Virus record (IMG/VR): IMGVR_UViG_3300020474_000005
Coordinates: 1 to 64,000 of that record
Direction: 5' to 3' (one strand)
Source of the DNA: a virus
DNA: 64,000 nt
Shown here: in pieces, positions 12,292 to 57,307 of the stretch
Layout: every line of letters begins with the position of its first letter
Position numbering within the stretch: position 1 is the first letter of the stretch
Notes under the pieces: model-generated
The model's database searches: none
The model's input: the letters and a program-made list of their open reading frames with translations, nothing else
Told to the model about the DNA's origin: nothing
Translations under genes and position numbers: made by a program

Positions 12292-12305
12292 ATACCTTGT
12301 AACAT

Positions 12306-12370: not shown

Positions 12371-12389
12371 CAAAAAGAGGAGAAAACAA

Positions 12390-12764: not shown

Positions 12765-12773
12765 TAAATTGAT

Positions 12774-12803
12774 TTTTTAGGGGGTGGAAACACTCCCTAA
12801 AAA
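12774..12803 (+). other. GNRA-capped hairpin (RNA stability/processing element or atypical terminator)
   Basis: TTTTTAGGGGGTG-GAAA-CACTCCCTAAAAA; no 3' U tract on either strand. Confidence 0.55.
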
Positions 12804-12819
12804 TTAAAAAGGATTTTTG

Positions 12820-13827
12820 ATGTCGAAAAATGTAATAGTAACAGATGGCAATTATAAAATTGTTGTACCTGATAATAACAGTATCGTTCTTGATACTGGT
12901 ACGTCTGTCGGCACAGTTGAGATTACAGGTAACTTACTTGTAAAAGGAACACAAACAACAGTAAATTCTGCAACACTAGAAATTGATGACAACATAATTG
13001 TTGTTAACAAAAATGAAAGTGCAAATGGTGTTTCTGAGACAACAGCAGGATTAAGAGTAGACAGAGGTGGACAAACTTATGAAGACGTTCAATTTGTTTA
13101 TGATGAATCAATTTCTTGGAACGATCCACAAACACAAACAACGTCACAAGGACCAAAAGGTGGTGGACCGCAAGGACCAAACTTTGGTGGCTGGGCAGTA
13201 ACTTCAGCATCAGGAGATATATTAAGTTTAAGAGTTGCGAACATTAATAACAACAATGCAATTTATTTCCAACCAGGTGGTGCAGGCACATTAAGAATTA
13301 TTAGAGCAGGATACAAAGCATTAATAACAGACAACAATGATATTCCTAACAAAGAATATGTTGACTATGAAATTAATCAGGCTGTAATTGGTGCTAACAT
13401 TCCTAAGATTGGACAACAGGATACAGAAGTAATAATCACTGACACAGGTGTAGGTAAAATAGAATTTAAAGTTGATAACTCACTTTTAGGTTTATGGAAA
13501 CTAGGTGGTAACAACACAGGTCATTTAGAAATTTACAATGGCACAACTGATATAGGAAGTGTAAGAATAGAAGATGCAACAATAAGTGGATTGAATTCAA
13601 ACCAAGATTTAGAACTTGTTGCTCCAGGAACTGGATCAGTAAGAATAAATGATTCAATGGTTATGCAAAACGTAACTGTTGATCCAGCAAAAGACAATAC
13701 AGGTGTCAAAATGTATGCTAAAACTCCAGGCGGAGGAGGCACAGGATTAAATTTTGTAAATACAAACGACTCAAGAGGAGAAGTAATCAGCACAAATAGA
13801 GCATTACTTTTTGGATTGATATTTTAA
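12820..13827 (+). CDS. Baseplate/tail structural protein
   Basis: Beta-rich; ITGNLLVKGTQTTVNS..LEIDDNII motif; C-terminal ALLFGLIF anchor typical of this fibre family. Confidence 0.65.
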   Translation: MSKNVIVTDGNYKIVVPDNNSIVLDTGTSVGTVEITGNLLVKGTQTTVNSATLEIDDNIIVVNKNESANGVSETTAGLRVDRGGQTYEDVQFVYDESISWNDPQTQTTSQGPKGGGPQGPNFGGWAVTSASGDILSLRVANINNNNAIYFQPGGAGTLRIIRAGYKALITDNNDIPNKEYVDYEINQAVIGANIPKIGQQDTEVIITDTGVGKIEFKVDNSLLGLWKLGGNNTGHLEIYNGTTDIGSVRIEDATISGLNSNQDLELVAPGTGSVRINDSMVMQNVTVDPAKDNTGVKMYAKTPGGGGTGLNFVNTNDSRGEVISTNRALLFGLIF

Positions 13828-35460: not shown

Positions 35461-35484
35461 TAATAAAAAGAAGGAGAAAAGGAC

Positions 35485-35805
35485 ATGGCATCAGGAAGAA
35501 TAGGAAAAGCAAATCTTACTGCCGCTACCAATACCACTGTGTATACGACACCTGCTTCAACTTTCACGGTTGCATCAGTATCGTTTTGTAACAGAGGTAA
35601 TCAAGCCATTAGTGTCAGATTAGCGGTGGCGGATAGTGCAACTCCAGATAACGCAGAATTTGTTGAATTTGAAACAGAAATTCTGTCTCATGGGGTGTTA
35701 GAAAGAACAGGTTTGGTACTGAGTGCAACACAGAAATTGGTTGCATACTCTAGTGCGGCTAACGTAAGTGTGGTAGTTACTGGTATAGAAACAAGTACTG
35801 CTTAA
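35485..35805 (+). CDS. Small beta-sandwich virion adaptor
   Basis: TVYTTPA...SVSFCNR...LERTGLVL...VVTGIE. Confidence 0.65.
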   Translation: MASGRIGKANLTAATNTTVYTTPASTFTVASVSFCNRGNQAISVRLAVADSATPDNAEFVEFETEILSHGVLERTGLVLSATQKLVAYSSAANVSVVVTGIETSTA

Positions 35806-35852
35806 TTTTGTGTAGAATAACATAAATAGTATAAACGAAGGAAACAAAAAAA

Positions 35853-36185
35853 ATGGGAAGATACATATCAACAACTGGAACTGCTGGAGTATCCACTAAA
35901 ATAGTGAGTACAACACACCAAGCGGCGGTAAATGAGAGAATCTTAGCAAACAGTTCTTCAGGAACGTTTACAATAACGTTACCTACGAACACTAGTTTAT
36001 TGACAAATGATACAATTCAAATCATCGACGCAAACTCTAGTTTCGGAACTAACGCGGTAACTGTTGCAAGAAATTCATCTTTAATTCAAGGAGCGGCAGA
36101 CGATTTGACTCTTGACTTAAATGGTGCAATAGTAACTTTAATTTACACAGGTTCGACTTATGGTTGGATCGTAGGTGCTGTATAA
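35853..36185 (+). CDS. Tail-fibre connector domain (T4 gp34 proximal-fibre-like repeat unit)
   Basis: SSSGTFTITLP...D.IQIID..SSFGTN.VTVARN...I.G..DDLTLD...TLIY....GW. Confidence 0.65.
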   Translation: MGRYISTTGTAGVSTKIVSTTHQAAVNERILANSSSGTFTITLPTNTSLLTNDTIQIIDANSSFGTNAVTVARNSSLIQGAADDLTLDLNGAIVTLIYTGSTYGWIVGAV

Positions 36186-36233
36186 TATTTTTTATTATAC
36201 TACACTTATAAAACTAATTGGGAATCGGAGACT

Positions 36234-37196
36234 ATGGCAAGTTTAAAATCATTACTCGGTACAAAGCAAGATGCATTCGTATCGGTTGCGGAATCTAACC
36301 TAGAAAAAGGTCAGATTTTTACATACCATAACGGTGCAAACTACTCTAGAATATGGTGCGGATTTTGTTTCCATCCAAGCGTATCTGGAACAGCAGTAGT
36401 AGAGGCGTGGGGAGCAGGTGGCTCTGGCGCTGAGATGTGTTGTTGCGGTTTTGGTCTTCCAGGTAACTCAGGTGCCTATGTTAAGAAAACAGTTGTGATG
36501 TCAGTCGGCGACTACATTTGTGGTTGTACTGGTATATCTTGCGGAAATTCATCAGATTTATGTTTTAGAGGTTGTTCAGAACCTACCATGTTAAGATTTT
36601 GCATAGGTGGCGCAGAGACTTGCGTGTGTGCAGAAGGTGGTAGAGGTGGAATAACTTATTGTTCAACTAATAACAGTTTTTATTGTTGCTACAGAGCAAA
36701 TGGTTTCTGTGTAACAAAAACAGACAATAACCAATGTGGAATTATTTGTAACCAATGTAACGGTGCATGGGTAGCCTGTGCATACGGTGGTGAAACAAAT
36801 AAACCAGGATTAAATTCTTGTGTATCAGCATTTGGTTGTTATCCATCATGTATTTGTATGTTTAATCACCACATTCCAACTCCAGCGGGACAAGGTTCCA
36901 AAGAGGGAAGGATGATTGTATATACAAATGACAACAGTAACGATTTTGCACAATGGTCAGGTCAAGGTCATCACCAACACAGAGCAAATTTAGGATCAGG
37001 TAGATTTCCAACAGGCGGTATACCTTGGTCATCTTGTTGGGGTTTCAGTGGTGCTTGTGGTTGTTATGAAAACGACGGTTGTGTTCCAGTGCTTCCAGTA
37101 GGAACTGGTGGTAGAGGACCTAACCCTTGTCCAGGTGTTAGAGATCACGCAATCAGAGGTGGCTTTGGAGCAGTAAGGATTAGATTTATTAGTTAA
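36234..37196 (+). CDS. Cys/Gly-rich fibre-tip-like protein 1
   Basis: About 30 Cys in 320 aa (hand count); EAWGAGGSG.EMCCCG...VRDH..RGGFGAVRIRF. Confidence 0.7.
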   Translation: MASLKSLLGTKQDAFVSVAESNLEKGQIFTYHNGANYSRIWCGFCFHPSVSGTAVVEAWGAGGSGAEMCCCGFGLPGNSGAYVKKTVVMSVGDYICGCTGISCGNSSDLCFRGCSEPTMLRFCIGGAETCVCAEGGRGGITYCSTNNSFYCCYRANGFCVTKTDNNQCGIICNQCNGAWVACAYGGETNKPGLNSCVSAFGCYPSCICMFNHHIPTPAGQGSKEGRMIVYTNDNSNDFAQWSGQGHHQHRANLGSGRFPTGGIPWSSCWGFSGACGCYENDGCVPVLPVGTGGRGPNPCPGVRDHAIRGGFGAVRIRFIS

Positions 37197-37205
37197 GGAT
37201 TTATT

Positions 37206-38219
37206 ATGGCAAGTTTAACAACATTATTACAAACCAAATATGATTTTGCAGTAGGTAACGAGACTAACCTAGAGCAAGGAAGAATTTATCAGTACTATCC
37301 AGGCAGTGCTAGAGGTACAAACTTTAGATGTCACGTATGTTGGGTAGCACCATCGGCTGGTACAGCAACTATTGAGATATGGGGTGCTGGTGGATCAGGT
37401 GCAGAGATGTGCTGTTGTGGATTTGGTATTAACGGAAATCCAGGAGCATACAGTAAAAAAGTTTTAACAATGGCATCAGGCTGTTTCATTTGTGGAATAG
37501 TTGGTCAGTCATGTGGTAACGCAGATGACCTATGTCACAGAGGTACTTCAGAGTCAACACAAATTTGTTGGTTTGCAGGCGGTGCCGACGGTTGTATGTG
37601 TGCCCAAGGTGGTAAGGGTGGTTACTCTTACTGTTCAACAGGTAACTCAGGTTACTGTTGTTTTGTAGCAGGTGCTTTCTGTAACACACAAGGCGGAGAT
37701 TCATACTGCGGAATTATTTGTAACTTTAAAGATTCATCAAGTGAACCAACTTTCTGTGCCCAAGCATATGGCGGAGATAATAACTGCTACGGCGGATTCA
37801 GTTGTTTCTATTTTAGAGGATGTCAACCAAACTGTAACTGTAGACAAGTTCCAGTTCTTAGATTCCCACCAGGACAGATATCTACAAAAGGTGGTGAAGT
37901 ACACTACACATTAGATTCTGACAATGGAAGATCACAATGGTCAGGAATGGGTGGTTGGATGAATGCCTCACACGGATTTAACCTTGCAACAAGATCACCA
38001 ACACAGGGTGGTCCATACACTGCTTGTTGGACAGGTAACAGAAGTTGCGGTTGTTATCAAGCAAATGGTTGTATACCTTTCATGCCAGCAGGAATTGGTG
38101 GACAAGGTCCAAGACCATGTGATGGTGTAAGAGATCACGCACACAGAGGTGGTCATGGTATGATTAGAATTAAATTTGTAAGTACTACTAGTGATTACGA
38201 TCTAGATAGTGCACCGTAA
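37206..38219 (+). CDS. Cys/Gly-rich fibre-tip-like protein 2
   Basis: About 29 Cys in 337 aa; same skeleton EIWGAGGSGAEMCCCG...VRDHAHRGGHGMIRIKF. Confidence 0.7.
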   Translation: MASLTTLLQTKYDFAVGNETNLEQGRIYQYYPGSARGTNFRCHVCWVAPSAGTATIEIWGAGGSGAEMCCCGFGINGNPGAYSKKVLTMASGCFICGIVGQSCGNADDLCHRGTSESTQICWFAGGADGCMCAQGGKGGYSYCSTGNSGYCCFVAGAFCNTQGGDSYCGIICNFKDSSSEPTFCAQAYGGDNNCYGGFSCFYFRGCQPNCNCRQVPVLRFPPGQISTKGGEVHYTLDSDNGRSQWSGMGGWMNASHGFNLATRSPTQGGPYTACWTGNRSCGCYQANGCIPFMPAGIGGQGPRPCDGVRDHAHRGGHGMIRIKFVSTTSDYDLDSAP

Positions 38220-38241
38220 GGATAAGGAGTAAATATAGTAT

Positions 38242-39219
38242 ATGGCTAGTTTAAAAGGATTATTAACTAATAGAAACCCAGCAGAGATGGTTGAGGAAAA
38301 CCTAGAGACTGGATATATCTACGTATGGACTCCAGGTACTAACTACACTAACTTTTGTAATGGTGTATGTTGGACGGCTCCAGCGGCTGGTAAGGCTCAC
38401 ATAGAAATATGGGGAGCAGGCGGTTCAGGTGCTAGAATGTGTTGTTGTGGTGACGGATTACCAGGCAACGCAGGTGGATATTCTTATAGAGAAATTACTG
38501 TAGAAGCAAACGACACACTAACAGGATGTACAGGTATGCCTTGTCAGGCTCACCCATTATGTCACTCAGGATGTTCTAACCCAACAGGTATTTGTTGGAT
38601 AACAGCATCTAACGGAAATGGCTGTATGTGTGCAAGAGGTGGTTACGGTGGAAAATCAATGTGTACAACAGGAAGTTCTTTATACTGTTGTTACAGAGCA
38701 CAAGGATTCTGCACTGTAAGATGTAACAATGATAACTGTGGACTAGTTTGTAACGTATGTACAGACGGTAGTACAGATTCATGGCAGTCGTGTGCTTATG
38801 GTGGAACAATTAACTGTTGCGGACAATTCGGTTGTGTATCATTCTTTGGATGTTGCCCACACTGTAAATGTAGATTCCAGCAACACGTTCCGATTCCAGC
38901 AGGACAATTTGCTGTTAACGGTGCGTTGATTACTTTCCAGAAAGAGTCGGATGGAACTCCGATGTCTAACTGGTCAGGTAACCAAATATTCCAATACTAT
39001 GCGGCTTTGAACTCAGCATCTAAAACGCCAAGACAAGGAACTCCAGACTCACACTGTTGGAGATCAGATAGAGCGTGTGGATGTTATGAAATGCAAGGAT
39101 GTAACAACTATCTACCAGTGGGTGGTGGCGGAATTGGCCCTAACCCATGTCCTGATGTAAGAGATCACGGAATCAGAGGTGGATTCGGAGGAGTAAGAAT
39201 CAGATTTGTTGCTTCATAA
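38242..39219 (+). CDS. Cys/Gly-rich fibre-tip-like protein 3
   Basis: About 33 Cys in 325 aa; EIWGAGGSGARMCCCG...VRDHGIRGGFGGVRIRF. Confidence 0.7.
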   Translation: MASLKGLLTNRNPAEMVEENLETGYIYVWTPGTNYTNFCNGVCWTAPAAGKAHIEIWGAGGSGARMCCCGDGLPGNAGGYSYREITVEANDTLTGCTGMPCQAHPLCHSGCSNPTGICWITASNGNGCMCARGGYGGKSMCTTGSSLYCCYRAQGFCTVRCNNDNCGLVCNVCTDGSTDSWQSCAYGGTINCCGQFGCVSFFGCCPHCKCRFQQHVPIPAGQFAVNGALITFQKESDGTPMSNWSGNQIFQYYAALNSASKTPRQGTPDSHCWRSDRACGCYEMQGCNNYLPVGGGGIGPNPCPDVRDHGIRGGFGGVRIRFVAS

Positions 39220-39261
39220 TAATTGAAGTTAGATAAATAAAACTGTAAGAGGATAAAAACA

Positions 39262-39906
39262 ATGTTTACAAAAGAATTTAGTATAGCAATGCCAAATGAA
39301 CCACTAAAGAACGACTTTAGTGACAACACAACTATCACAGGAACTTACAAAGGTCCAAGATACATTAAAATCGAGTACAACAACGAATCTAAAGTTGTTG
39401 GTAACTGGATTGATGAAGGTGACACAGAGGCAGAATTTGCAGGTAACCCAGTAGCAGAAGGTTATACATCAACAACTTTAGACGCAGATGTTGATACAAA
39501 ATGGGTTGCATACATAACAGGTTTTTATTCAACAGGTGACGTTGCTGACTACGAAGAAGACTTAGGCACAACAGATGGTAACGGTGACGCAGAAAAATTT
39601 ACTTTTTACTGGCACGATGGTTCAGGTGTACTTGCACAGATTTACAATCAAGGCACAATGAAATTTGAAGACGGTGCTATCACAGAACCTTCAGTAAGAG
39701 TTCACACAGTATCAGAAGCAGATTTCACAGAATCAGTAAACAGCCATATTGCTAACGCAACAACAGAAGCGGCAAGAGATGTTTACTCAGATGATGAAAA
39801 AACGGCTATCAATGCTTACAAATCTACACTAGAAGGTTTAAGCACAAAATACAGTGGTAAAGATCACTGGAAAATTCCTTTCCCACAACAACCAGACTAC
39901 AAATAA
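39262..39906 (+). CDS. Putative tail-fibre assembly chaperone (paralogue of 40361)
   Basis: C-terminus Y...L......Y...DHWKIPFPQQP resembles fibre-chaperone ends; follows the Cys-rich trio. Confidence 0.5.
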   Translation: MFTKEFSIAMPNEPLKNDFSDNTTITGTYKGPRYIKIEYNNESKVVGNWIDEGDTEAEFAGNPVAEGYTSTTLDADVDTKWVAYITGFYSTGDVADYEEDLGTTDGNGDAEKFTFYWHDGSGVLAQIYNQGTMKFEDGAITEPSVRVHTVSEADFTESVNSHIANATTEAARDVYSDDEKTAINAYKSTLEGLSTKYSGKDHWKIPFPQQPDYK

Positions 39907-39915
39907 TAATTTGCC

Positions 39916-40302
39916 ATGGCAACTGTAACAAGAGTAAACGGATCAGGTCTTTCAACAGCAGGAAACGTTTTTTACCCAGGTGCATTTGCATTTAAAATTT
40001 TAGTAAAAATTGCAAACGGTACAGCAGTTGATTTAAGAGCAGAAGATGATGCCCTTGACGAAACAGTAGAAGCAATTTGCAAAGAAATTAATCCTTTAGT
40101 TTATTGTACTACAGACGACAACAGTGGGACAATGACTGTTGTATGTGATAACAGTGCAACAGCGGCGGACTTACAAGCACGTATTAGACTAATTGGTAGA
40201 GCGGAAAACTATCCAACAAGCACAGTTACAGCAGTTGGACCAAATACTATTGATACAAGCGGTACATTAGTAACTCTCGCGGCAACATTAACAGCAACGT
40301 AA
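39916..40302 (+). CDS. Small virion protein, hypothetical
   Basis: MATVTRVNG start; Ala/Thr-rich; AADLQARIR. Confidence 0.55.
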   Translation: MATVTRVNGSGLSTAGNVFYPGAFAFKILVKIANGTAVDLRAEDDALDETVEAICKEINPLVYCTTDDNSGTMTVVCDNSATAADLQARIRLIGRAENYPTSTVTAVGPNTIDTSGTLVTLAATLTAT

Positions 40303-40360
40303 TCCAAAAAACACCAATCATTTTTAAAAGCAAGGTTTCGTTCACAAAATAAGTACGAGT

Positions 40361-41089
40361 ATGCCTTACAAAAAGATTGAAGTAGATGAAGCAGACAAAT
40401 ACTCACAAGATGATTTGAATCATCTCACATTTATCAACAATAAAATCCCATTCGACGTCACACTACCAAATCAACCATACGTAGACGATTTCAGCGAAGG
40501 TGTAACTCACCCTTGTTTTTACACAGGACTGAATTTCATGAGAGTCAATAGACGTATCAAGGATGGATTGATATTGGAAGTTCTAGTAGAAGCAATGAGC
40601 CTGGAAGAAATAGAATCTAGAAAGATTATTCACGACGAGGGTTGCGACAGTTTTATAATTGATGCGAGAGAATATCCATGGGAAGCGGCTTTTATCAGTG
40701 GTAGATACTATCATGAAGATGTTCCAAACTATGTAGAGGAAATAGGCACAACAGATTTCTGGGGCAAACCAGAAGTTTGGGAGTATGTGCATTCACCTGA
40801 AACAGGATTAATGGCACAAATTTATTATGTGGGATCAATGCATTACAACGACGGCAAATATAGCACACCAAAATTTAGAGCACACATAATCGAACGCGAA
40901 TCATTTGATATGAACGTACAGGTACACATCAAAGACTGTGTTAGAGAAGCAAAAAGAGATGTTTACAACACGGAAGAAAGAGATTATATTATTAAGTATG
41001 GTGAATGGTTAAAAACAGTGCCTCAAACATACAAAAATATCAAGCATTGGAAGATATTATTCCCTCAACTTCCCGAGTTTAAACCCTAA
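40361..41089 (+). CDS. Putative tail-fibre assembly chaperone (paralogue of 39262)
   Basis: Shares PN.P...DFS, GTTD, AQIY, EA.RDVY and HWKI.FPQ.P with 39262. Confidence 0.5.
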   Translation: MPYKKIEVDEADKYSQDDLNHLTFINNKIPFDVTLPNQPYVDDFSEGVTHPCFYTGLNFMRVNRRIKDGLILEVLVEAMSLEEIESRKIIHDEGCDSFIIDAREYPWEAAFISGRYYHEDVPNYVEEIGTTDFWGKPEVWEYVHSPETGLMAQIYYVGSMHYNDGKYSTPKFRAHIIERESFDMNVQVHIKDCVREAKRDVYNTEERDYIIKYGEWLKTVPQTYKNIKHWKILFPQLPEFKP

Positions 41090-41134
41090 TCAGACTTAAC
41101 ATACCTTTAGCAGACCAATCATTAAATAAATTAT

Positions 41135-42085
41135 ATGAGCAATTCGAAAAGACCTAAGGCTTTTTTTCTAAATGGCGGAATGGGAAGAATAATATCTGCG
41201 ATTCCTGCCTTGGAAAAATATTATGAATCAAAGGAAGATCCTGATTTTATTATTGTGATTGAAGGTATTTGTAATATCCTAAATGGACATCCAACATTGG
41301 ATAATAAAACTTATGATATGTATCATAAAAATTTATTCCACACAAAATTAATTAACATGGACATAGTAAGTCCTGAACCTTACAGACTGAATGAATATTT
41401 CAATCAGAAATGTGACATCGCCCAAGCATTTGATATACTGATTAACAAAAAAGGAGTAAGAAAATTGCCTGCTCCAACGTTAATATTAAGTAAAGAAGAA
41501 CTTTTAGAAGGAAGAAAAGCAGTAGATGAAATAAAAGAAAAAGTTAAGAAAGAAAAATTAGTCATCATACAACCTTTTGGACGTGCTATTACACAAATAG
41601 ATAATTCTTTCATAGACAAAAGCAATAGAAGTATAGAATTCACAAATTTAAAAAAAATTATTAAAAAATTACAAGAAAAAGATTGGGCAGTATGCGTAAT
41701 GGCTGAGTTCGGAATAGAATTTAAAGACGCAGGATTTAAAGATGAGGTTGCTATTCCTGAAATAGCAGATTTACGTAACTGGGCAGGTTTAATAAAGTAT
41801 GCAGATCACTTTTTAGGATGTGATAGTGTAGGTCAACATCTTGCAAAAGCAATGGAAACTCCAGCAAGTGTTGTTATGGGAGCAACGTATCCGATAAACA
41901 CTTCATATCCAGACGATAAAAGTTTTAAAATTATTGATATGGGACAATTTGATAGAGAATATGACCCTATAAGAATAAGTTTCGATGAAAGGATCAGTAG
42001 AAAGCATGAAAGAATTATGTCAATGACTCCTGAAATAGAAGATTATGTAGTGTCTGCTGTTAACGGAGATCCAATAGAGGAATAA
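41135..42085 (+). CDS. GT9/heptosyltransferase-like (GT-B) protein A
   Basis: N-terminal GGMGRIISAIPAL; IIQPFG; C-terminal ADHFLGCDSVGQHLAKA (GT9 DSxxxHxA donor-binding motif). Confidence 0.65.
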   Translation: MSNSKRPKAFFLNGGMGRIISAIPALEKYYESKEDPDFIIVIEGICNILNGHPTLDNKTYDMYHKNLFHTKLINMDIVSPEPYRLNEYFNQKCDIAQAFDILINKKGVRKLPAPTLILSKEELLEGRKAVDEIKEKVKKEKLVIIQPFGRAITQIDNSFIDKSNRSIEFTNLKKIIKKLQEKDWAVCVMAEFGIEFKDAGFKDEVAIPEIADLRNWAGLIKYADHFLGCDSVGQHLAKAMETPASVVMGATYPINTSYPDDKSFKIIDMGQFDREYDPIRISFDERISRKHERIMSMTPEIEDYVVSAVNGDPIEE

Positions 42086-42086
42086 C

Positions 42087-43919
42087 ATGAGTGATGATTT
42101 AAACAAATACAACAAAACAGGATACATAGCCGCAGTGGCAAGAGGTCACAACGCAGGTGTATGTTTACTGAAAGACGGCAAAATAGTATTTTCAATAGAA
42201 GAAGAAAGACTATCAAGAAGAAAATATGATGGTGGTCCTTATGCTTCCATGTTTGAAATATTAAAATACACGGACAAGATTGATTACCTAATAATTGCAC
42301 ATACACAATCATTGAAAGATCCATCTACTGGCAGAGTAGATTATTCAGGAGATGATGTATACACAGGTATTGCTAGAAAGTTAGGATTAATAGATCCATA
42401 CATTCATAAGATAGAACATCCACAAGTTATTGACTTATCACATATACACCACAAACTTCATGCCGCGTGTGCATTTTATAGATCAGGTTTTGACAAAGCA
42501 GTTGCAGTGATTGTTGACGGTGCAGGAACTTTTATACCTATTAAGAATAGTGTAGCAGGTGACATGACTGTATTTGAAGTTGAAAGTATATTCAGTTGTG
42601 ATTATCCTAATGATATCTTTGCACTGTACAAACATTATGCAACAGGCACAGCAAGTCCAGGAGGTTACTATCCTGAAATGGATTCGGAAAGTATTAGTGA
42701 ACCAGGAAAAACACATGAAGCATTATTCACAGACAAAGCAGGCATAACAAAAACATATGAAGCAATAACTCAGTATTGTGGATTCAGTGCCATTGAGGCA
42801 GGAAAGACTATGGGATTGTTTCCTTATGGAAAGAAAAATGATGTAATACCACCACTGTTTCAAAAAGAAGGAAAATTTGAATTATCAAATAGAAACTTTA
42901 TCATACCAACTTACCCAAATGCGGCGCAGGTAAACAGTCAAATATATCCTTTTGTGGATGCTAATCCTGATTCTGATAAAGGCGAAGATTGGACAAAAAT
43001 GCAAAACAGAAGAGACATGGCTTACGCAGTACAAAAAGAAACACAGAAACAATGTTTAGATTTAATTTACAAAGCAGTTGAGATGAGTGGATGTAAAAAT
43101 GTTGTGTTTTCTGGAGGATACGGATTAAATTGTGTGGCAAATTATTATTATCTTGAAAGTTTACAAAAAGACGGTATTAAGTTATATGCTGAACCAGTTT
43201 CAAATGATGCGGGAACGGCAATGGGTGCGGCTATGTTGTTCTATTACAGCCTTACACAAACAAAAGAAAAGAAAGTTGATGCACCAACTTTGTACTTAGG
43301 TCCAAAAAGAGAATACACACAAGAGCAAATAAGCGGAATATGTCAAAGACCAGGTGTTGTTTTAGAAGATTGTGACGATTCTAAAGTTGTAGAACTTTTA
43401 GTTAATAAAAATATTGTATCAATATTCCAAGGGCAAAGTGAAAATGGTCCTAGGGCATTAGGTAATAGAAGTATTTTGTTTGATCCAAGATTCAAAGACG
43501 GTAAAGATTATGTAAACAGAGTGAAAAACCGTGAATACTTTAGACCATTTGCTGGAACAATACTTCATGATTACGTGCATGATTGGTTTGATCTACGTGG
43601 AATGGAAGAAACTCCACATATGATGTATGCTGTAAACTGTCAACCAGGTATAGAAGAGAAGATTCCAAGTATAATTCACGTGGACGGTACTTGCAGAATA
43701 CAATCTGTGAAACGTGAACAGAATCCTTTGTATTATGACCTAATAAAAGAGTTCCATAAACAAACAGAATGTCCTATAATTTTCAATACATCATTTAATT
43801 TAGGTGGTGAACCATTAGTTGAGACATTAGAAGACGCAGTAAGAACATTACAACACAGCGAAATAGAATATCTATATTTGCCAGAGTACAAAAAGATAGT
43901 AAAGGTTTTAAATGGCTAG
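42087..43919 (+). CDS. Carbamoyltransferase, NodU/CmcH/TobZ family
   Basis: EEERLSRRK, HHKLHA..AFY.SGF, VDGAG, GKTMGL.PYG, SGGYGLNCVAN, DAGTAMGAA, GPRALGNRSIL, KNREYFRPFA, HVDGTCRIQ, NTSFN. Confidence 0.93.
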   Translation: MSDDLNKYNKTGYIAAVARGHNAGVCLLKDGKIVFSIEEERLSRRKYDGGPYASMFEILKYTDKIDYLIIAHTQSLKDPSTGRVDYSGDDVYTGIARKLGLIDPYIHKIEHPQVIDLSHIHHKLHAACAFYRSGFDKAVAVIVDGAGTFIPIKNSVAGDMTVFEVESIFSCDYPNDIFALYKHYATGTASPGGYYPEMDSESISEPGKTHEALFTDKAGITKTYEAITQYCGFSAIEAGKTMGLFPYGKKNDVIPPLFQKEGKFELSNRNFIIPTYPNAAQVNSQIYPFVDANPDSDKGEDWTKMQNRRDMAYAVQKETQKQCLDLIYKAVEMSGCKNVVFSGGYGLNCVANYYYLESLQKDGIKLYAEPVSNDAGTAMGAAMLFYYSLTQTKEKKVDAPTLYLGPKREYTQEQISGICQRPGVVLEDCDDSKVVELLVNKNIVSIFQGQSENGPRALGNRSILFDPRFKDGKDYVNRVKNREYFRPFAGTILHDYVHDWFDLRGMEETPHMMYAVNCQPGIEEKIPSIIHVDGTCRIQSVKREQNPLYYDLIKEFHKQTECPIIFNTSFNLGGEPLVETLEDAVRTLQHSEIEYLYLPEYKKIVKVLNG

Positions 43920-44892
43920 AAAAACAGCAATATTTGTAAACGGTGGTGCAGGTAGAAGCATAAGTTCAATACCAGCAATAGAAAAATACATAGAAGAGAA
44001 CGCAGATCTAGATCCAATTATCATTTGCGAAGGTGGTACAGATGCATACAAAGGTCATCCTAAACTACATTATAGAGCATATGACAATTGGCACAAAAAT
44101 TTATTCCAAGATTTATTAAAAGATAGAGATTTATTATCGCCTGAACCATATAGAGTATGGGAATATTACAATCAAAAATGTAGTTTAGGTCAAGCATATG
44201 ATATAGCAATAAATGATAAAGGAATTAGAGATTTGCCAAGAGCAAATTTAAAATTAAGCAAGGAAGAAATATTATTAGCACGAAAAATGATTGCGGAAGT
44301 CAAAGAAAAAACAGGAAAAGATAAGATTGTTGTATTCCAACCTTTCGGCAGAGGCGCACAGCCAGAAAAACTTGATGAAAAACAAAAAGAAAAACAACCT
44401 GACATAATAGACTCTACAGGAAGAAGTGTAGAACTACAAAATGTTTGGAATATTGTACGTAAATTAAGCAAAGATTATGGTGTAATGGTAATGAGTGAAT
44501 TTCCATTAGACTTTGGAAAGCACATACCCAATAAACCAGTGGCATTGCCTATGGGAACACACATTAGAGTATGGATGGGTATTATTCAACAAGCGGATCA
44601 TTTTGTTGGTTGCGATTCAGTGGGTCAACATATTGCTCATTCATATAATAAATCAGCAACTGTGATAATAGGCTCTACGTATCCTATTAATACTACTTTT
44701 CCAGATGATGAAAAATTCAATGTAATTGATTTAGGTAAAGATGAACGTGTGTACAGTCCAATAAGAGTCACTTCAGATGAGTTTTCAGACAGACTTAATG
44801 AAGGTATTATGGCTATGGATGAGGAAGTAGAAACACGTATTATTAAATCTGTACAAAGGCTTATCAAACACGGCAAAAACGCCCGTAAATAA
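43912..44892 (+). CDS. GT9/heptosyltransferase-like (GT-B) protein B
   Basis: Paralogue of 41135: GGAGRSISSIPAI, SPEPYR..EY.NQKC, FQPFGRG, ADHFVGCDSVGQHIA. Confidence 0.65.
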   Translation: MARKTAIFVNGGAGRSISSIPAIEKYIEENADLDPIIICEGGTDAYKGHPKLHYRAYDNWHKNLFQDLLKDRDLLSPEPYRVWEYYNQKCSLGQAYDIAINDKGIRDLPRANLKLSKEEILLARKMIAEVKEKTGKDKIVVFQPFGRGAQPEKLDEKQKEKQPDIIDSTGRSVELQNVWNIVRKLSKDYGVMVMSEFPLDFGKHIPNKPVALPMGTHIRVWMGIIQQADHFVGCDSVGQHIAHSYNKSATVIIGSTYPINTTFPDDEKFNVIDLGKDERVYSPIRVTSDEFSDRLNEGIMAMDEEVETRIIKSVQRLIKHGKNARK

Positions 44893-44959
44893 CCTATATC
44901 TACGTATTCCACAACTACTGCCAATTAGGTAAATACACTATAACAAGGGATTTTCGACT

Positions 44960-45394
44960 ATGTTTGATGTATCAAGATTTTTTGGCAAGGGTGATAAAAA
45001 CACGCTTCTTTTGAAGAATGGTTTAAATTTTTCACACAATGGGCCATATGGAGTTGTAGAGGACGGTCTAGTATTAGACAAGTTCCATGTGAATACGTTT
45101 TCATCGGCTGAATATGCCATACAAGTTGACTACGATACTAACAACAAAGAACTTATTAAAATGTTAGTAACAGCAAGTCCCAATCAATCAGCACTTACAA
45201 TATATGCTAGAACAAATTTAGGAAACAATCTAATAACAATAGACAGCACAGTAGACAATTCATTGTGTAAAATAACAGTAAGTCCTACGGATAAAACTCA
45301 AACAGAGAAATATTCAGGATCTAAAATAATATTCAGTGCCACTTATTTTGCAACGCAAAATGCATTAGTGGGAGGAAGTCAGGTAACAAGTTAA
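44960..45394 (+). CDS. Small baseplate/fibre structural domain protein
   Basis: Beta-rich motif LDKF....FSSAEY.IQV......E...MLV; late promoter upstream. Confidence 0.55.
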   Translation: MFDVSRFFGKGDKNTLLLKNGLNFSHNGPYGVVEDGLVLDKFHVNTFSSAEYAIQVDYDTNNKELIKMLVTASPNQSALTIYARTNLGNNLITIDSTVDNSLCKITVSPTDKTQTEKYSGSKIIFSATYFATQNALVGGSQVTS

Positions 45395-45395
45395 T

Positions 45396-47252
45396 ATGGC
45401 AGTAGTAAAAAGACCTTTCATAAGTGAAAATGGTTTTCAAAGTACAGGATTCGCAGTTGATACGGCAGGTAACGTAACTGTCCGTACAATTACTAACACA
45501 TATACTCCACCTGCTCCGGCAGTGGTTCCAGATTTTAATGTAGAGGAAACATCAGGTGCTTTTACATGGAAAAAAGACGGTACAGCAGTTGCAGGAAACA
45601 ATCCAACAATTACTATAGAACGTGGTAAAACATATTCTATAAATTTAACTTTAAACAGTTTAGCATTTAACATTTACAAAGCAGATACAGGTAACAGTGC
45701 TGTTCCAGGATTACTTTACAGCACAGGATTATCACACACAAACATTGTAACTGGTTCGACATTAGTTACAGGAAGTAAAAATTTCTCACAAACTTGGCAA
45801 CAAGCAACTACTGGAGCAAATAGAACTGCACAATATTTTGTGCCTGACACAACAGGAACGTCATATGCAACTAAAAAATTACCAGTTGTAATTGCTTTAC
45901 ATGATTCAGGTAGCACTAGTGCAACAGGATTAGCGTCAATAAATTACATTACAAATTCAGTGTTAATTGCGCCTCAAGGTTACAATAACACATGGAACGT
46001 AGGATATCAATCTAGTAAAGCAGATGATATAGCATTGTTAGATTCAATTATTGCTGACTTGGCAAATTATGATAACGTTGATACAAGAGAAATTACAATA
46101 ATAGGTTATGGAAACGGTGCTCAGTTGGCTCTACAATATTCTAATTACAATCAATCTGCAACAATAAAAAATATAATTTGTTACAATGGTCTTCTACACA
46201 TGGACCAATACAATTCTACTTTAGGAAAATTTTACAATTATTCTTTAAATTCTGTAGACAACGATACATCAACTGAAATTAGTTGGAGTGAACTTACACC
46301 AATAGGACAAAGACAAGTATTAATGTTCAATGGTGAACAAGAACTTAATTTTTTATTCAACGGCGGAACTTACTTAGGTCAAAGTTTATACAGCGGTGTA
46401 GATAGTATTCATGGAATGGCTGTTGCAAACGCTTACAGTGGAACAAAAATTACATCAGCAACTTTACAACCAAATGGAAGTAATCTATACGATTACACAT
46501 CAGTTAAAATGTACTCATTTCCAACTGTGGCTAACAATTTTTCTGGTGTACAGAATGATATTAGAACATTAATTACAACACAAATTACTCCTTCAACATA
46601 TTTGGATATTCCTACATCTACGACTTTGACAGATGCGGCGGCGCAAGGTCAACAAACAGGAAATTTAAGTTACACAGTTCCAGTAGATGCTCCGGACAGT
46701 ATGTTTTATGGTGACAGTGATGGAAATCCGTTCGGAACGGTTACAGTTACACAACCATCAGTAATTGGTGTTGGTGTATTCAGCAGTATTTTAAACACAG
46801 GAAATTTATTACAGAATGGTGTTAATGCAAATATAGAAATGAAACCAACTGGAACAGGATTGATCACCATTAATCCTGAGACTACAGGTAGCATTAATAA
46901 CATGAATGTTAATACAGCACAATTAACAACATCAGGAAACGTAAATTTAACACCAAATGCAGATGTTACAATAAGTCCACAAGCAAGTGGTAACCTTACA
47001 ATTAGTCCTCTTTCAGTAGGCTCATTAGATAACGTCACAGTGGGCGGAACAACACCAAGAAATGGAACCTTTTCAAGTTTGGTTTCGAGTGCAGGAACGT
47101 TAAATAGTACTACAATAGGATTAACAACTGCGGCGCAGGCGGCATTTACATCGGCTACTGTAACAAGTGGGCCGGCAACGGCTAATAGTTTAACTAGAAA
47201 GTCGTATGTAGATAACACGGCGACAGTATTAAGTATTGCCTTAGGAGCATAG
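45396..47252 (+). CDS. Virion fibre protein with an inserted degenerate alpha/beta-hydrolase (PHB-depolymerase/LpqC-like) domain
   Basis: LPVVIALHDSG, LIAPQG.NNTWN, DDIALLDSII..L, VD.REI.IIGYGNGA; fibre motifs GSLDNVTVGGTTP..GTF and TRKSYVD...LSIALG. Confidence 0.7.
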   Translation: MAVVKRPFISENGFQSTGFAVDTAGNVTVRTITNTYTPPAPAVVPDFNVEETSGAFTWKKDGTAVAGNNPTITIERGKTYSINLTLNSLAFNIYKADTGNSAVPGLLYSTGLSHTNIVTGSTLVTGSKNFSQTWQQATTGANRTAQYFVPDTTGTSYATKKLPVVIALHDSGSTSATGLASINYITNSVLIAPQGYNNTWNVGYQSSKADDIALLDSIIADLANYDNVDTREITIIGYGNGAQLALQYSNYNQSATIKNIICYNGLLHMDQYNSTLGKFYNYSLNSVDNDTSTEISWSELTPIGQRQVLMFNGEQELNFLFNGGTYLGQSLYSGVDSIHGMAVANAYSGTKITSATLQPNGSNLYDYTSVKMYSFPTVANNFSGVQNDIRTLITTQITPSTYLDIPTSTTLTDAAAQGQQTGNLSYTVPVDAPDSMFYGDSDGNPFGTVTVTQPSVIGVGVFSSILNTGNLLQNGVNANIEMKPTGTGLITINPETTGSINNMNVNTAQLTTSGNVNLTPNADVTISPQASGNLTISPLSVGSLDNVTVGGTTPRNGTFSSLVSSAGTLNSTTIGLTTAAQAAFTSATVTSGPATANSLTRKSYVDNTATVLSIALGA

Positions 47253-47259
47253 AAAAAGA

Positions 47260-54270: not shown

Positions 54271-54660
54271 TTATTTTTCTTCAGTAACGGTAGTTTGTTG
54301 ATTATCGCCTTTAATTATGCGATAATTGTCATTGGGATCATCAGCAGTACTAACTTCAGTAATACTTCCATTGTCAGTAAGACATTGTACTTGATGAGGT
54401 AGGAACGGCGGATTACGCCATGTGTCGCCTTCATTTAATTCTTTGGTATATAATGTTGCATCTTTGGTATCTATCCAACTTAATAAAAATTTACCGTTGT
54501 TTATAAACCATGATTCATCTTTTACAGCGTGATAGTGCATTGAAAATTTTGCACCTTTTCTATTGAAAACCATTATTTTTCCACAATATAAATCATTGGA
54601 AGCAAAGATTAATTCATATCCCCAACCTTTGTCTATTTTTCCTTCTTTATTAATTGACAT
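54271..54660 (-). CDS. Cupin (sugar isomerase-like)
   Basis: KGWGYE, YCGK, FSMHYHAVKDESW, P...PHQ, EVST.D...DNYRI. Confidence 0.75.
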   Translation of the reverse strand: MSINKEGKIDKGWGYELIFASNDLYCGKIMVFNRKGAKFSMHYHAVKDESWFINNGKFLLSWIDTKDATLYTKELNEGDTWRNPPFLPHQVQCLTDNGSITEVSTADDPNDNYRIIKGDNQQTTVTEEK

Positions 54661-55468
54661 TTAAGAATTCCTCCACTGTTCTAAATTTGTGTTCTATATT
54701 TTTATTTAATTCTGTTAAATCTGCACTGGTGTAGGTCTGATATTGACCTTGTAATTTTGCAGGCATGGGTATTGTTTCTATTTGTGCGTCATATTTTTTG
54801 GCAACAAGTTCTGCAACTTTTTGAAAAGATATTGGTGCTCCTGTGCCAACATTGAATATACCAGAAACATCAGCATTAAGCATTTTTCCATGTACCTCAC
54901 AGACATCATCTACACTAACAAAATCACGTAGATACTTGTCACTGTTTTCAAACAATTTTATTTTGCCAGTCTTTGCTTGATTGGCAAATTTAGTTACAGG
55001 AGATGCTTGATCGCCTTTCTTTTCTTCGTTGTGTCCATACACATTAAAATATCTAAATCCTTGTACAAGCACTTTAAATTCTCCCATTACAGAATTAACA
55101 AATCTATCAAATAGGTATTTGCTCCAAGCATAAGCATTTAATGGATACACGTCACCATCTTCCTTGAAATTTCCTGTGTTCCCATACACACTTGCGGAAC
55201 TGGCATACTGAAAATTTGTACCCATGTTGTCGCACATTTCCAAAAGTTTCATGCTGTATTCTAAATTCGTTTTCATGATTTTATCAACGTCTCTTTCAGT
55301 TGTGCTTGTGATTGCTCCTAGATGTATGATCCAATCATACAAAGACGGATCCGGAAAATGATTATAATCTTCCCATCTAAAGCCGATGACTTCATGCCCT
55401 TGTTTTGTAAGATGCATTCCTAAATGATCTCCGATAAATCCTTTGTAACCTGTTAAGCAAATTTTCAT
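54650..55468 (-). CDS. hldD: ADP-L-glycero-D-manno-heptose 6-epimerase
   Basis: TGYKGFIG, HLGAITSTTE, YASSASVYG, PLNAYAWSK, GFRYFNVYG.NE..KG..AS, RDFVSVDDV, GIFNVGTG, YQTYTSAD. Confidence 0.88.
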   Translation of the reverse strand: MKICLTGYKGFIGDHLGMHLTKQGHEVIGFRWEDYNHFPDPSLYDWIIHLGAITSTTERDVDKIMKTNLEYSMKLLEMCDNMGTNFQYASSASVYGNTGNFKEDGDVYPLNAYAWSKYLFDRFVNSVMGEFKVLVQGFRYFNVYGHNEEKKGDQASPVTKFANQAKTGKIKLFENSDKYLRDFVSVDDVCEVHGKMLNADVSGIFNVGTGAPISFQKVAELVAKKYDAQIETIPMPAKLQGQYQTYTSADLTELNKNIEHKFRTVEEFLNVN

Positions 55469-56070
55469 TTAACATTCTCCCACAATTTTATAATTTTATC
55501 AGCGCCTTCTGGTCTTATGTCTTTAGTAAGTTCATCGTGCCAGTTGGTCAAGTAGTTCATGTTTATGTTAATCCTGCTTCTTTTATCTGTACAAGTCGTG
55601 CCTGTGTGTTCCATGTAACTTGGAAATACCACCATTGAATTTTCTACACTAGGAACTTTTGTGCCATCTTTAAATTCAGTGTAACCATCTGTTGTGTTTA
55701 CATAATAAATTGCGGTGTAACTTAATGCCACTCTTGTATCTGCATGGAATCCATGCTTAATAATTTTTTCTGTTCTTGGTATGTTGTTTGCTTTTACTCT
55801 AATAAAAGTATTTGCTTTCAATACATTAAAGATTGGATAAAGCATTACCCAATTACTGTGTTCAGTGGTCACATCGGAAACTCCATGAAAGTTGTGTTGA
55901 AACTGTAATTGTTCTTTTTCCTCAGTCATTTTTTGTGCATCTTCAACAACGTGTTCCGAGTAATACCAAGGAAAATGATCACTTAACATTTTGTCCGTAA
56001 GTATCTTAAATTCTTCTTTTTGAATTACATTGGTGCAAATTAATTTGCCTTTTTCAATTCTTGTTTCCAT
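55465..56070 (-). CDS. 2OG-Fe(II) oxygenase
   Basis: GFHAD, TAIYYVNTTDGYTEF, VENSMVVF....EH, terminal R.NIN.NY. Confidence 0.75.
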   Translation of the reverse strand: METRIEKGKLICTNVIQKEEFKILTDKMLSDHFPWYYSEHVVEDAQKMTEEKEQLQFQHNFHGVSDVTTEHSNWVMLYPIFNVLKANTFIRVKANNIPRTEKIIKHGFHADTRVALSYTAIYYVNTTDGYTEFKDGTKVPSVENSMVVFPSYMEHTGTTCTDKRSRININMNYLTNWHDELTKDIRPEGADKIIKLWENVK

Positions 56071-57307
56071 TAACCTTGTCCACTATGTTTGATGTTGAAA
56101 AACCTTCTACTGTTGGAAATATTATCACTTCGGCAAGGTCATTTCCGACCACTGTGTCGAACGTGTAATCTCCACCTTTTACAATCACGTTTGGTGTATG
56201 TTCTTTTAATGCATCTATGGGAGTATCTTGTTCAAATACAACCACTTGGTCCACCCAGGGCAGTTGTAATAGTTGTTGTTCTCTTGCCCAAGCATTATTG
56301 AATGGTCTATCGTCACCCTTTAATCTTTTTACACTTGCATCAGAATTAATTCCAACAATTAATCTATCTCCTTGCTGTTTCGCAAATTTTAATAATTCTA
56401 AATGTCCTTTATGCAGAATATCAAAAACGCCATTTGTCCATACCACTGTGTCTTCAATATCTGATCTATCTATTATAGATACTCCTCTTTTTTGCACAAT
56501 TTTTTCTGCACCTTTAACTGCTAATTCACAACAAGCAATCATATTGTTGGTTTTAAAATAATGTGCAATTATGGCAAGTACAGAATCACCTGCACCACTT
56601 ACATCTGCAACTTCAACAGTATTGCTTTTAATATGATCATAAGAATCTTTAGTGACTACGTGTATACCGTTCGCTCCATCAGTTACAACAAGCCATGTCC
56701 ATACATTATCTTCACACATTTTTTTAGCAGTTTCAATATTAAAATTACCAAACCATGCTTCATATTCTTTCATATTTGGTTTGACTAAAAATGCACCAAC
56801 GTATCTACTAAATCCTTGTTTTGGATCCACATATACATTCTTACATTTTTCTAAAATTTTCGTTATTGTATCTTTTTTGATTACTCCTTTGTTGTAATCA
56901 CTTACAATTACCACATCGGTTTCATTTAAATTTTCAAGCAGTATTTCAACAGGAGTATCTGCCTTATATTTCTCCTCCTTGTCCACACGAATAAGGTGTT
57001 GTCCGTTCTGTCCTATGATTCTAGTTTTGGTAGTTGTCATTTCACCATCTTGGCACAGATGCGACTTTACTCCATTTTGCAGTAAAATTTCTTGGATTTT
57101 GTGTCCGGGGATGTCGTTGCCCACGGCACCATAAAGCCACGTGTCTGTGCCCAAGTTTGATAGGTTTAACGCTAGGTTTCCAGCGCCTCCAACATTGAAA
57201 TCTTTGTTTGTTTCTTTAACTACAAGCACCGGTGCTTCTGGACTCACTTTTTGGCAATCGCCCTGTGTCCACATATCAAGCATTACATCACCGATGATTT
57301 TAATCAT
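56054..57307 (-). CDS. hldE: Bifunctional heptose-7-phosphate kinase / heptose-1-phosphate nucleotidyltransferase
   Basis: IGDVMLD, SPEAPV, GGAGNLA.NL, SDYNKG, VDPK, KPN..E, DVSGAGDS; then TNGVFDILHKGH, GINSDASVKRLKG..RP, KGGDY, GFSTS. Confidence 0.92.
   Translation of the reverse strand: MIKIIGDVMLDMWTQGDCQKVSPEAPVLVVKETNKDFNVGGAGNLALNLSNLGTDTWLYGAVGNDIPGHKIQEILLQNGVKSHLCQDGEMTTTKTRIIGQNGQHLIRVDKEEKYKADTPVEILLENLNETDVVIVSDYNKGVIKKDTITKILEKCKNVYVDPKQGFSRYVGAFLVKPNMKEYEAWFGNFNIETAKKMCEDNVWTWLVVTDGANGIHVVTKDSYDHIKSNTVEVADVSGAGDSVLAIIAHYFKTNNMIACCELAVKGAEKIVQKRGVSIIDRSDIEDTVVWTNGVFDILHKGHLELLKFAKQQGDRLIVGINSDASVKRLKGDDRPFNNAWAREQQLLQLPWVDQVVVFEQDTPIDALKEHTPNVIVKGGDYTFDTVVGNDLAEVIIFPTVEGFSTSNIVDKVNGNKN

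Follow-up and report, generated by a model that had tools for sequence, protein, structure and literature searches.

The closest described relatives of the locus treated here are the lipopolysaccharide (LPS) gene clusters of cyanomyoviruses, T4-GC 296-308, which occur in P-SSM2, S-SSM7, S-CAM1/3, P-SSM5 and Sf-FS3 (Sullivan et al. 2010, PMC3037559). Their genes were already known between 2005 and 2010 as cyanophage LPS genes without a known role (PMC3037559), and the literature on these clusters treats them as "LPS genes" or as "stuffer", unlinked to fibre proteins; nor was any report tying them to fibres found in the literature on the glycosylation of cyanophage and other phage fibres. Two further systems provide precedents for the chemistry: in the LPS core of Pseudomonas, WapO carbamoylates Hep II, so that carbamoyl-heptose chemistry has a natural example (PMC8005017), and TibC/Aah heptosylate adhesins in the cytoplasm (PMC4358343). 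The locus in question lies in the IMG/VR virus record IMGVR_UViG_3300020474_000005, a linear record of 76 kb that is estimated to be 22% complete, whose positions 1-64,000 were analysed (a stretch of 64,000 nucleotides (nt), hereafter the window). Between 36234 and 44892, nine open reading frames (ORFs) on the + strand include genes for three cysteine-rich paralogues, two chaperone-like proteins and a unit in which two GT9-like glycosyltransferases (GT1 and GT2; GTs) surround a carbamoyltransferase (CT).

What has figured for about 20 years as the "LPS genes" or stuffer DNA of large cyanomyoviruses is, according to the comparison with relatives, one half of a fixed module that it forms together with the Cys-rich trio and the chaperones. 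The most plausible product of this enzymatic half is an O-carbamoylated heptose, since ADP-heptose genes are linked to this half, its glycosyltransferases combine the GT9 fold with the corresponding donor motif, and its carbamoyltransferase is of the NodU type. As acceptor of the sugar, the phage's own fibre proteins are tentatively favoured. New with respect to the published picture are, on the one hand, fold evidence for three protein classes and a quantified synteny that includes inversions with a switch of promoter type and, on the other, the duplication of the GT around the CT, a homologue in Vibrio phages whose neighbour is a Cys-rich tail protein and the exclusion of an ordinary WaaC- or TibC-type assignment.

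A nine-gene block within the fibre genes

Tail-fibre, virion and neck genes of T4 type make up the large ORFs of the window, among them gp15 and fibres of 1721, 1891 and 2336 amino acids (aa). At the protein level, the nearest cultured relatives of the phage are the Kyanoviridae cyanomyoviruses; searched by nucleotide megablast, 50,697 phage records gave no match to the block. An initial annotation of this DNA, made from its letters, had described a contiguous same-strand block of nearly abutting or overlapping genes amid the fibre genes, and both the layout and the location are borne out: the nine ORFs follow one another with successive gaps of 9, 22, 42, 9, 58, 45, 1 and -8 nt, fibres of 1891 and 1721 aa lie upstream, and virion proteins of 618 and 2336 aa lie downstream.

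Fibre-tip proteins and chaperones

The first three genes of the block encode proteins rich in cysteine and glycine: paralogue 1 (36234..37196, +; 320 aa, 30 Cys; phrog_4205, 1e-12), paralogue 2 (37206..38219, +; 337 aa, 29 Cys; phrog_4205, 9e-13) and paralogue 3 (38242..39219, +; 325 aa, 33 Cys). That they are three paralogues, as first annotated, follows from their alignment, in which they are 46-51% identical, with 29-33 Cys apiece. Their content of Cys amounts to 8.6-10.2% and that of Gly to 15-17%, and 100 columns of the alignment are invariant, among them those of a CCC motif, of WGAGGSGA-MCCCG-G and of a C-terminal frame RGG-G-hRIhF. No family was found for them in Pfam or NCBIfam, and tblastn with a Cys-rich protein of the window reached S-CAM1 only, and weakly, profile and jackhmmer searches being required to find the homologues. 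Structure was more telling. An AlphaFold (AF2) model of paralogue 3, made from 40 homologues (alignment A3) with a pLDDT of 78, matches the fibre of the cyanophage Pam3 (7ypx, Z 15.7 over 213 aa, with an untrimmed root-mean-square deviation (rmsd) of 12.6; 7yfw, Z 15.2 over 192 aa, rmsd 3.1), the tail-tip protein of the mycobacteriophage Bxb1 (9d93_Qa, Z 12.1 over 173 aa) and the TNF-like plus glycine-rich (TG) domains of ALK and LTK (Z 7.6-9.9 over 143-157 aa), while unrelated structures do not exceed a Z of 4.4. Because the model fits the Pam3 fibre, the Bxb1 tail tip and the ALK/LTK domains, the trio can be securely predicted to consist of small fibre or tail-tip proteins with a known receptor-binding fold and an unusual cysteine load.

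The trio is followed by two tail(-fibre) assembly chaperone-like proteins, A (39262..39906, +; 214 aa; phrog_9740) and B (40361..41089, +; 242 aa), the latter being a paralogue of the former and a member of the same jackhmmer family (32% identical, E 1e-38). The chaperone pair of the initial annotation thus holds as a pair of paralogues, although not as a pair of neighbours: between them there is a 128-aa ORF that had not been listed (39916..40302, +), with a weak match to phrog_11445 minor tail protein (9e-4), which among the 80 related loci described below is shared by the window with L014 only. Against Pfam both window copies stay below threshold, with no match, and tblastn with a window chaperone found nothing. 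The family, gathered by jackhmmer from related loci and then aligned (A5), is more informative: PF16778, Phage_tail_APC, matches 17 of its 27 members (best 1.3e-11), and the A5 profile finds 2kz6 in the PDB at 1.5e-4, over the conserved YRQxLRDLP...WK.PFP tail. At the family level, sequence makes the two probable tail assembly chaperones of the Phage_tail_APC type.

A GT9 branch without the catalytic aspartate

GT1 (41135..42085, +; 316 aa; phrog_8954, 4e-125), which bears the motifs GGMGR and CDSVGQH, and GT2 (43912..44892, +; 326 aa; phrog_8954) are 47% identical (E 6e-106) and enclose the NodU/CmcH/TobZ-family O-carbamoyltransferase (42087..43919, +; 610 aa), as had been annotated. The start of GT2 overlaps the end of the CT gene by 8 nt, and because the genes of the unit abut or overlap, their translational coupling is plausible.

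Family models capture the two GTs poorly. Against Pfam Glyco_transf_9 (PF01075), GT1 obtains 3.3e-4 and 20.5 bits where the cut-off is 22, and GT2 has no match; against NCBIfam RfaQ, GT1 obtains 1.7e-5 and 23.8 bits where the cut-off is 467; and TIGR04414, the model of the BAHT family (TibC/Aah), detects GT1 only, at E 0.06 and 12.3 bits where the cut-off is 200. Since a profile of the GT alignment (A2) found no GT9 chain among the PDB sequences, a fold search was required. It was made with an AF2 model of GT2 (pLDDT 85), which here also represents its paralogue GT1. The model has a GT-B fold, so that "GT-A", the name under which one copy had been annotated, has to be rejected if it is taken as a fold. 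It aligns over 253-279 residues with the GT9 structures 3tov (Z 23.2), WaaF (1psw, Z 20.9), and WaaC (2h1h) and TibC (both Z 18.6), and Foldseek gives GT9 structures E values from 8.5e-12 to 1.5e-7. PnsB1-type chains score in the same range (7wff_a, Z 19.1; 9grx_1, Z 18.8). All solved GT9 structures thereby form a top tier of their own, at Z 18-23, and other GT-B families reach 12.7 at most.

The two lobes of the fold tell different stories. In the C-lobe, hhalign of A2 against E. coli WaaC/F/Q/U pairs D235-S236...H240 with the donor motif D261-T262...H266 of WaaC, and D235, S236 and H240 are invariant in A2. In the N-lobe, G14-R15 is invariant in 34 of the 34 aligned GT sequences, and the Arg of this GGxGR motif also recurs in the four cultured phages, in a 36%-identical homologue (L098) and in a 26%-identical one from a Vibrio phage, whereas it is G12-D13 that is invariant in E. 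coli WaaC/F/Q/U. R15 falls on D13 of WaaC in a structural alignment that sets model residue 3 and following against WaaC residue 1 and following, a correspondence of register and secondary structure and not a residue-level superposition. D13 is the catalytic base of WaaC. In TibC, the catalytic base is D110, and the TibC/Aah family is defined by an N-terminal beta-barrel, a beta-hairpin thumb, a four-Cys iron finger and the Asp base (PMC4358343). GT2, by comparison, begins at Rossmann strand 1 and has 3 Cys and no four-Cys motif.

Because the window GTs do not have the catalytic Asp of either WaaC or TibC, they can be filed neither as ordinary heptosyltransferases nor with Aah/TibC, and are a phage-specific GT9 branch without the family's catalytic Asp. 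The label of ordinary LPS heptosyltransferase was accordingly rejected, Arg replacing the Asp and the family cut-offs being missed, and so was BAHT membership, given the absence of barrel, thumb, iron finger and Asp base and a TIGR04414 score far below its cut-off. ADP-heptose would still be their donor, judging from the linked HldE and HldD-like genes. Might the Arg signal a different linkage? The loss of the Asp is compatible with S-transfer, because a thiolate needs no Asp base, and the GGxGR enzymes could conceivably place heptose or carbamoyl-heptose on the thiols of cysteines in the Cys-rich fibre-tip proteins, a proposal that we hold to be improbable. If it were true, S-linked heptosylation of a virion protein would be a protein modification so far undescribed, and it would explain why a GGxGR subfamily is found beside Cys-rich tail proteins in two unrelated phage families.

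As a separate observation, the GTs of cultured cyanophages carry a Gln/Pro-rich low-complexity tail of 50-100 aa with a basic end, for instance KKGFQSEIKNLLKS. It was found in L001:10746-11993, L002:10828-11982, L004:11998-13137 and L005:11992-13104 and is absent from both window copies.

Carbamoyltransferase and heptose supply

The CT contains both domains of its class, Carbam_trans_N (PF02543, 4e-24, 86 bits against a cut-off of 24) and Carbam_trans_C (PF16861, 7e-58, 195 against 27), that is, a Kae1-like N domain and a YrdC-like C domain, and it matches solved O-carbamoyltransferases of the PDB over its full length (7xb6, 6e-54; GdmN, 3e-45; NovN, 3e-44; TobZ, 2.5e-41). GPRALGNRS, FRPFA, HVDGT and NTSFN are aligned and conserved, and HHKLH and VDGAG pair with HHRAH and NDGQA of 7xb6 within a low-scoring N-terminal stretch. 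The protein is 59% identical to its counterparts in S-SSM7 and Sf-FS3. Orthology to NodU itself was rejected (NF041651, 122 bits against a cut-off of 1000), and PHROG files the protein under moron/auxiliary metabolic genes.

The nearby hldE/hldD-like operon was likewise recovered (54271..57307, -), and comprises genes for a cupin, an HldD-like epimerase, a 201-aa HxD..H protein and a bifunctional HldE. HldE (NF008454, 5.8e-98) and the heptose 6-epimerase (TIGR02197, 3.4e-69) both remain under the equivalog cut-offs; the Pfam domains of the group are PfkB, CTP_transf_like and Epimerase. On their strand they are preceded by gp15 and a NUDIX gene, and the genes overlap or leave gaps of 16 nt. GmhA (SIS_2) was sought in the 76-kb record and not found, nor was GmhB recognised there, the record covering some 22% of the genome; in relatives, a gmhA gene is present. 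The 201-aa protein (55465-56070, -), whose HxD...H pattern has no Pfam or NCBIfam match, resembles cyanophage ORFs labelled "denV / DNA endonuclease V" (P-SSM2_324, E 2.8e-20), where either the label or the resemblance may be questionable.

Conservation in relatives

Matching stretches in IMG/VR numbered at least 598 in a scan, and the best 80 of them, with GT identities of 53-94%, were compared as loci. Conservation of the neighbourhood in relatives, which the initial annotation had put forward as a check, was found in these 80 IMG/VR loci, in 12 contigs of metagenome-assembled genomes (MAGs) and in four cultured cyanophages, across at least three genera. Wherever the flank suffices, the best 80 loci have exactly three Cys-rich genes, one or two chaperone genes, GT-CT and then homologues of the 144-aa and 618-aa proteins that follow the block in the window. 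GT-CT is inverted relative to the fibre genes in 16 of them, yet its slot is unchanged. The GT-CT-GT form is limited to near relatives of the window (L006-L023, L051 and L088). In S-SSM7, Sf-FS3, S-CAM3 and P-SSM2, a large fibre is followed by a 106-aa and a ~108-aa protein, two to three Cys/Gly-rich proteins (24-36 Cys), a chaperone-like protein, one GT9-like protein and the carbamoyltransferase, and then by hldE, gmhA, cupin and epimerase genes.

On the 12 MAG contigs (L088-L099), GT identity descends to 36%. Their bins had been assigned to Methanobacteriota, Neomarinimicrobiota (with one contig of 335 kb), Chitinophagales, Actinomycetota, Flavobacteriales and other groups. Because they have the same phage module aboard, the contigs almost certainly consist of mis-binned phage DNA, and a profile search of genome contigs (archaeal and bacterial MAGs) showed no true cellular homologue context. 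One of them, L098, has in place of the trio a single, extremely Cys-rich fibre of 1257 aa (L098:4115-7888) with the same Gly-rich C-terminal motif, followed by the 36%-identical GT, the CT, an epimerase, a cupin and hldE.

Among cultured phages, the CT occurs in 143 records and the GT in 24 records of cyanophages or marine viruses; the GT also occurs in 31 records of distant Vibrio phages and in one of an Aeromonas phage. A Cys-rich homologue is detectable in 17 records, every one of which belongs to the 24 GT carriers. N4-like Vibrio phages carry a 26%-identical GT9-like homologue with GGxGR. In vB_VspP_SBP1 it has 244 aa (L086:6998-7732) and comes after two small membrane proteins, and the next gene downstream encodes a tail protein of 925 aa with 41 Cys (L086:7742-10519); within the region examined, neither a carbamoyltransferase nor a heptose gene is annotated.

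Relatives also add genes to the cassette. In some, genes for a 2-oxoglutarate (2OG)-Fe(II) oxygenase and a DUF6445 protein lie between chaperone and GT (L093:2379-3703; L095:3901-5192; L099:3929-4630; and L001:10068-10727, that is, S-SSM7_119, whose label of "minor coat protein" looks mis-annotated), and the cassette would therefore be a variable set of tailoring enzymes. In relatives with a single GT, one or two proteins of about 300 aa that start with M..LFTFGCS(F/Y)(S/T) lie between GT and CT (L089:8939-9907; L053:10999-11895 and 11899-12822; L024:10987-11817; L090:9689-10591). They have no Pfam match, and the LFTFGCS motif recalls SGNH/GDSL enzymes, but with Cys in the position where Asp is expected.

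Promoters and timing

Late promoters had been attributed to the block from the start, and this stands for some of its genes. ATAAATA lies upstream of 35853 (at 31 nt) and 39262. TAAATA is the motif ahead of 38242, 41135 and 44960, but neither motif precedes 36234, 37206 or 40361, and the T4 late consensus TATAAATA occurs 0 times in the whole window against 5.3 expected. ATAAATA shows a strand bias in the window, with 11 occurrences on the + strand and 1 on the - strand. A scan of 35400-47300 for sigma70 promoters and terminators gave no excess over shuffles (48 against 43.7 and 4 against 6.2, respectively), and no + strand terminator was found within the block, which therefore reads as part of a co-oriented fibre transcription unit. 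In related loci with a single, co-oriented GT, a late-type [ACT]TAAATA lies upstream of the GT in 31 of 44 cases and a sigma70-like site in 2 of 44, and the late-type motifs include perfect TATAAATA sites that come after a terminator hairpin. Loci with two GTs mostly have neither motif type (14 of 19) and appear co-transcribed.

The acceptor of the sugar

How would the two halves of the module work together? In the scheme that we favour, the first half would provide three small fibre paralogues, built on the TNF-like plus glycine-rich domain of the Pam3-fibre/ALK type, in each of which some 30 cysteines may stiffen or ligate the fibre-tip protein, and two tail-assembly chaperones of the Phage_tail_APC type would accompany them. 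The second half would be the sugar-tailoring unit, GT9-like / carbamoyltransferase / GT9-like. ADP-heptose would be made by the phage HldE and the HldD-like epimerase, heptose being a sugar that the cyanobacterial host would not have in its own LPS, and the two GT9-like enzymes would move it onto phage fibre proteins in the cytoplasm late in infection, either adding one residue each or serving two kinds of site. The carbamoyltransferase would next O-carbamoylate the sugar with carbamoyl phosphate and ATP, and carbamoyl-heptose on the fibre tips might then alter receptor binding, stability or recognition. Gene identities, folds, paralogy, linkage and conservation are established by the analysis; the donor sugar, the order of the reactions and, above all, the acceptor are what we infer.

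Fibre proteins, the acceptor proposed in the initial annotation, are favoured, tentatively, for several reasons that concern linkage, regulation and the host: the unit has a fixed slot in the fibre module, which is kept even after inversion; the GT is phyletically coupled to the Cys-rich proteins; the Vibrio phage offers an independent case; regulation is mostly late-type, and the heptose genes lie behind the late gene gp15; 2OG-Fe(II) oxygenase genes are found inside the cassette in relatives; and the LPS of marine Synechococcus contains neither heptose nor 3-deoxy-D-manno-octulosonate (Kdo) (PMC4515613).

Several observations weigh against a fibre acceptor. All loci come from related T4-like marine phages, so that their synteny is largely inherited and does not amount to independent cases. 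When GT-CT is inverted (L053, L055, L060, L069-L072, L074-L076, L078-L081, L083 and L085), it has its own sigma70-type promoter, TTGaca-N17/18-TAnnnT, in 14 of the 16 loci, ~130 nt upstream of the GT start, and TAAATA in none of the 16. Inverted GT-CT looks like an early or moron-type unit, and with its orientation the pair seems to have changed its class of promoter. The invariant Arg at the position of WaaC D13 and TibC D110 means that ordinary O-heptosyl transfer cannot be assumed, and the basic-ended GT tail of the cultured relatives could be a membrane anchor, or else a docking peptide. The NodU-family enzymes known to us target small molecules, oligosaccharides or LPS core, and not protein-linked sugars. 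Lastly, no glycan has been observed on virions of module carriers and no virion proteome exists among them, the proteomics of the 2010 study having covered S-SM1 only (PMC3037559).

The strongest competitor, which we regard as possible but on balance rather unlikely, is that the GT-CT unit and the heptose genes put carbamoyl-heptose on the LPS or O-antigen of the host, or on some other lipid-linked polysaccharide, and mask its receptors, so that superinfection would be blocked and progeny kept off debris. Tailoring genes and receptor-binding fibre genes would in that case remain neighbours through their co-evolution, as in T5, where the llp gene adjoins that of its receptor-binding protein. 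Such a target would suit the sigma70-type promoters of the inverted units, the PHROG class of the CT and the basic GT tails, which could anchor in the membrane, but in most lineages the unit lies in a late fibre operon or behind a late-type motif, and the Vibrio phage homologue stands in a row of tail genes without LPS genes. It would also agree with the published annotation as LPS genes, even if their role is given as unknown (PMC3037559), and with the fact that the sole known pairing of GT9 with a NodU-type carbamoyltransferase serves an LPS core (PMC8005017); however, the canonical acceptor is missing from a host LPS without Kdo and heptose (PMC4515613), LPS heptosyltransferases have a catalytic Asp that is replaced here, and the cut-offs of these enzymes in Pfam and NCBIfam are missed.

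A doubtful explanation is that the GT9-like proteins are non-catalytic, acting as sugar-nucleotide-binding or assembly factors in the manner of PnsB1, a GT9-like subunit of chloroplast NDH, or that they tailor a soluble small molecule together with the carbamoyltransferase and the oxygenases and SGNH-like genes of the relatives. The Asp base is gone and the fold is retained, and PnsB1-type chains fit the model as well as WaaC does, but the D-S-x-G-x-H donor motif and many polar N-lobe residues are invariant in the aligned family, and a dedicated ADP-heptose pathway is always close by. As to a small molecule, the variable accessory tailoring genes would speak for it, as would the substrates of the characterised NodU-family enzymes, which, as far as we are aware and by their PDB names, are small molecules or oligosaccharides; against it, the window has no scaffold-forming genes of the polyketide synthase, nonribosomal peptide synthetase or aminoglycoside type. 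Highly improbable, lastly, is that carbamoyl-heptose is placed on phage DNA bases by analogy with the glucosyl-hydroxymethylcytosine of T4, an alternative target that the initial annotation had named, since, even if T4-type phages do glycosylate their DNA with GT-B enzymes, the fold is here specifically GT9 and not that of T4 AGT/BGT, the unit lies in the fibre module and is mostly late-type and not among replication or nucleotide genes, and the window shows no gene for a base-hydroxymethylase or the like.

If the fibres are the target, abundant ocean phages would chemically tailor their own host-recognition proteins, which would bear on host range, adsorption models and the reading of fibre structures and would bring a new GT9 enzyme chemistry. 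If it is the host envelope, the same genes would constitute a receptor-masking system in lytic cyanophages.

Flanking genes

The block is bordered by three small genes on the + strand. A 106-aa fibre-module protein (35485..35805; phrog_11338 tail fibre protein, 5e-7), with homologues in S-CAM3 (1.9e-30) and P-SSM2 (4.5e-25), occupies the same slot before the cassette in nearly all loci. It is followed by one of 110 aa (35853..36185; phrog_9648 tail protein plus others) that is akin to a domain of large fibres, namely the 1477-aa fibres of S-SSM7 and Sf-FS3 (~1e-13). On the other side, a conserved 144-aa protein (44960..45394), with a weak Cadherin-like beta-sandwich match, keeps the same slot 3' of the cassette in nearly all loci.

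Comparison with known systems

With the T4-GC 296-308 clusters of cyanomyoviruses, the window shares the gene order, a GT that is 41-54% identical and a carbamoyltransferase that is 48-60% identical. Unlike them, it has two short GT9-like copies around the carbamoyltransferase instead of a single 370-415-aa copy that carries a low-complexity tail, two chaperone paralogues with the 128-aa insert, and heptose genes that lie ~9 kb off, on the other strand and behind gp15, with no gmhA found in the 76-kb fragment. The Cys-rich proteins, in turn, have in common with the Pam3 fibre, the Bxb1 tail tip and ALK/LTK a fold and a WGxGGxG ... GGxGxVxIxF/Y frame, at a sequence identity to these structures of merely 14-19%, and differ from them in their 9-10% Cys, their invariant CCC and their occurrence as a fixed trio of paralogues.

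The GTs of the window resemble WaaC/WaaF (CAZy GT9) in fold (Z 18.6-20.9) and in the D(S/T)xxxH donor motif of the C-lobe, and the locus as a whole resembles Pseudomonas WaaC/WaaF plus WapO (PA5005) in that a NodU-family carbamoyltransferase is paired with ADP-heptose genes, the comparison with WapO being one by family. The 7-O-carbamoyl-heptose of the Pseudomonas core is, moreover, the natural precedent for the proposed product (PMC8005017). The differences from this system are the Arg in place of Asp13, the missed family cut-offs, a host LPS without the acceptor and the setting among phage fibre genes. As for TibC/Aah (4rap, 4rb4), the window GTs have neither their beta-barrel, thumb and iron finger nor their Asp base, but the catalytic domains superpose (Z 18.6 over 267-270 residues), and, if the favoured model of fibre decoration is right, the likeness would extend to function, as both would use ADP-heptose to decorate, in the cytoplasm, an adhesin whose gene lies alongside.

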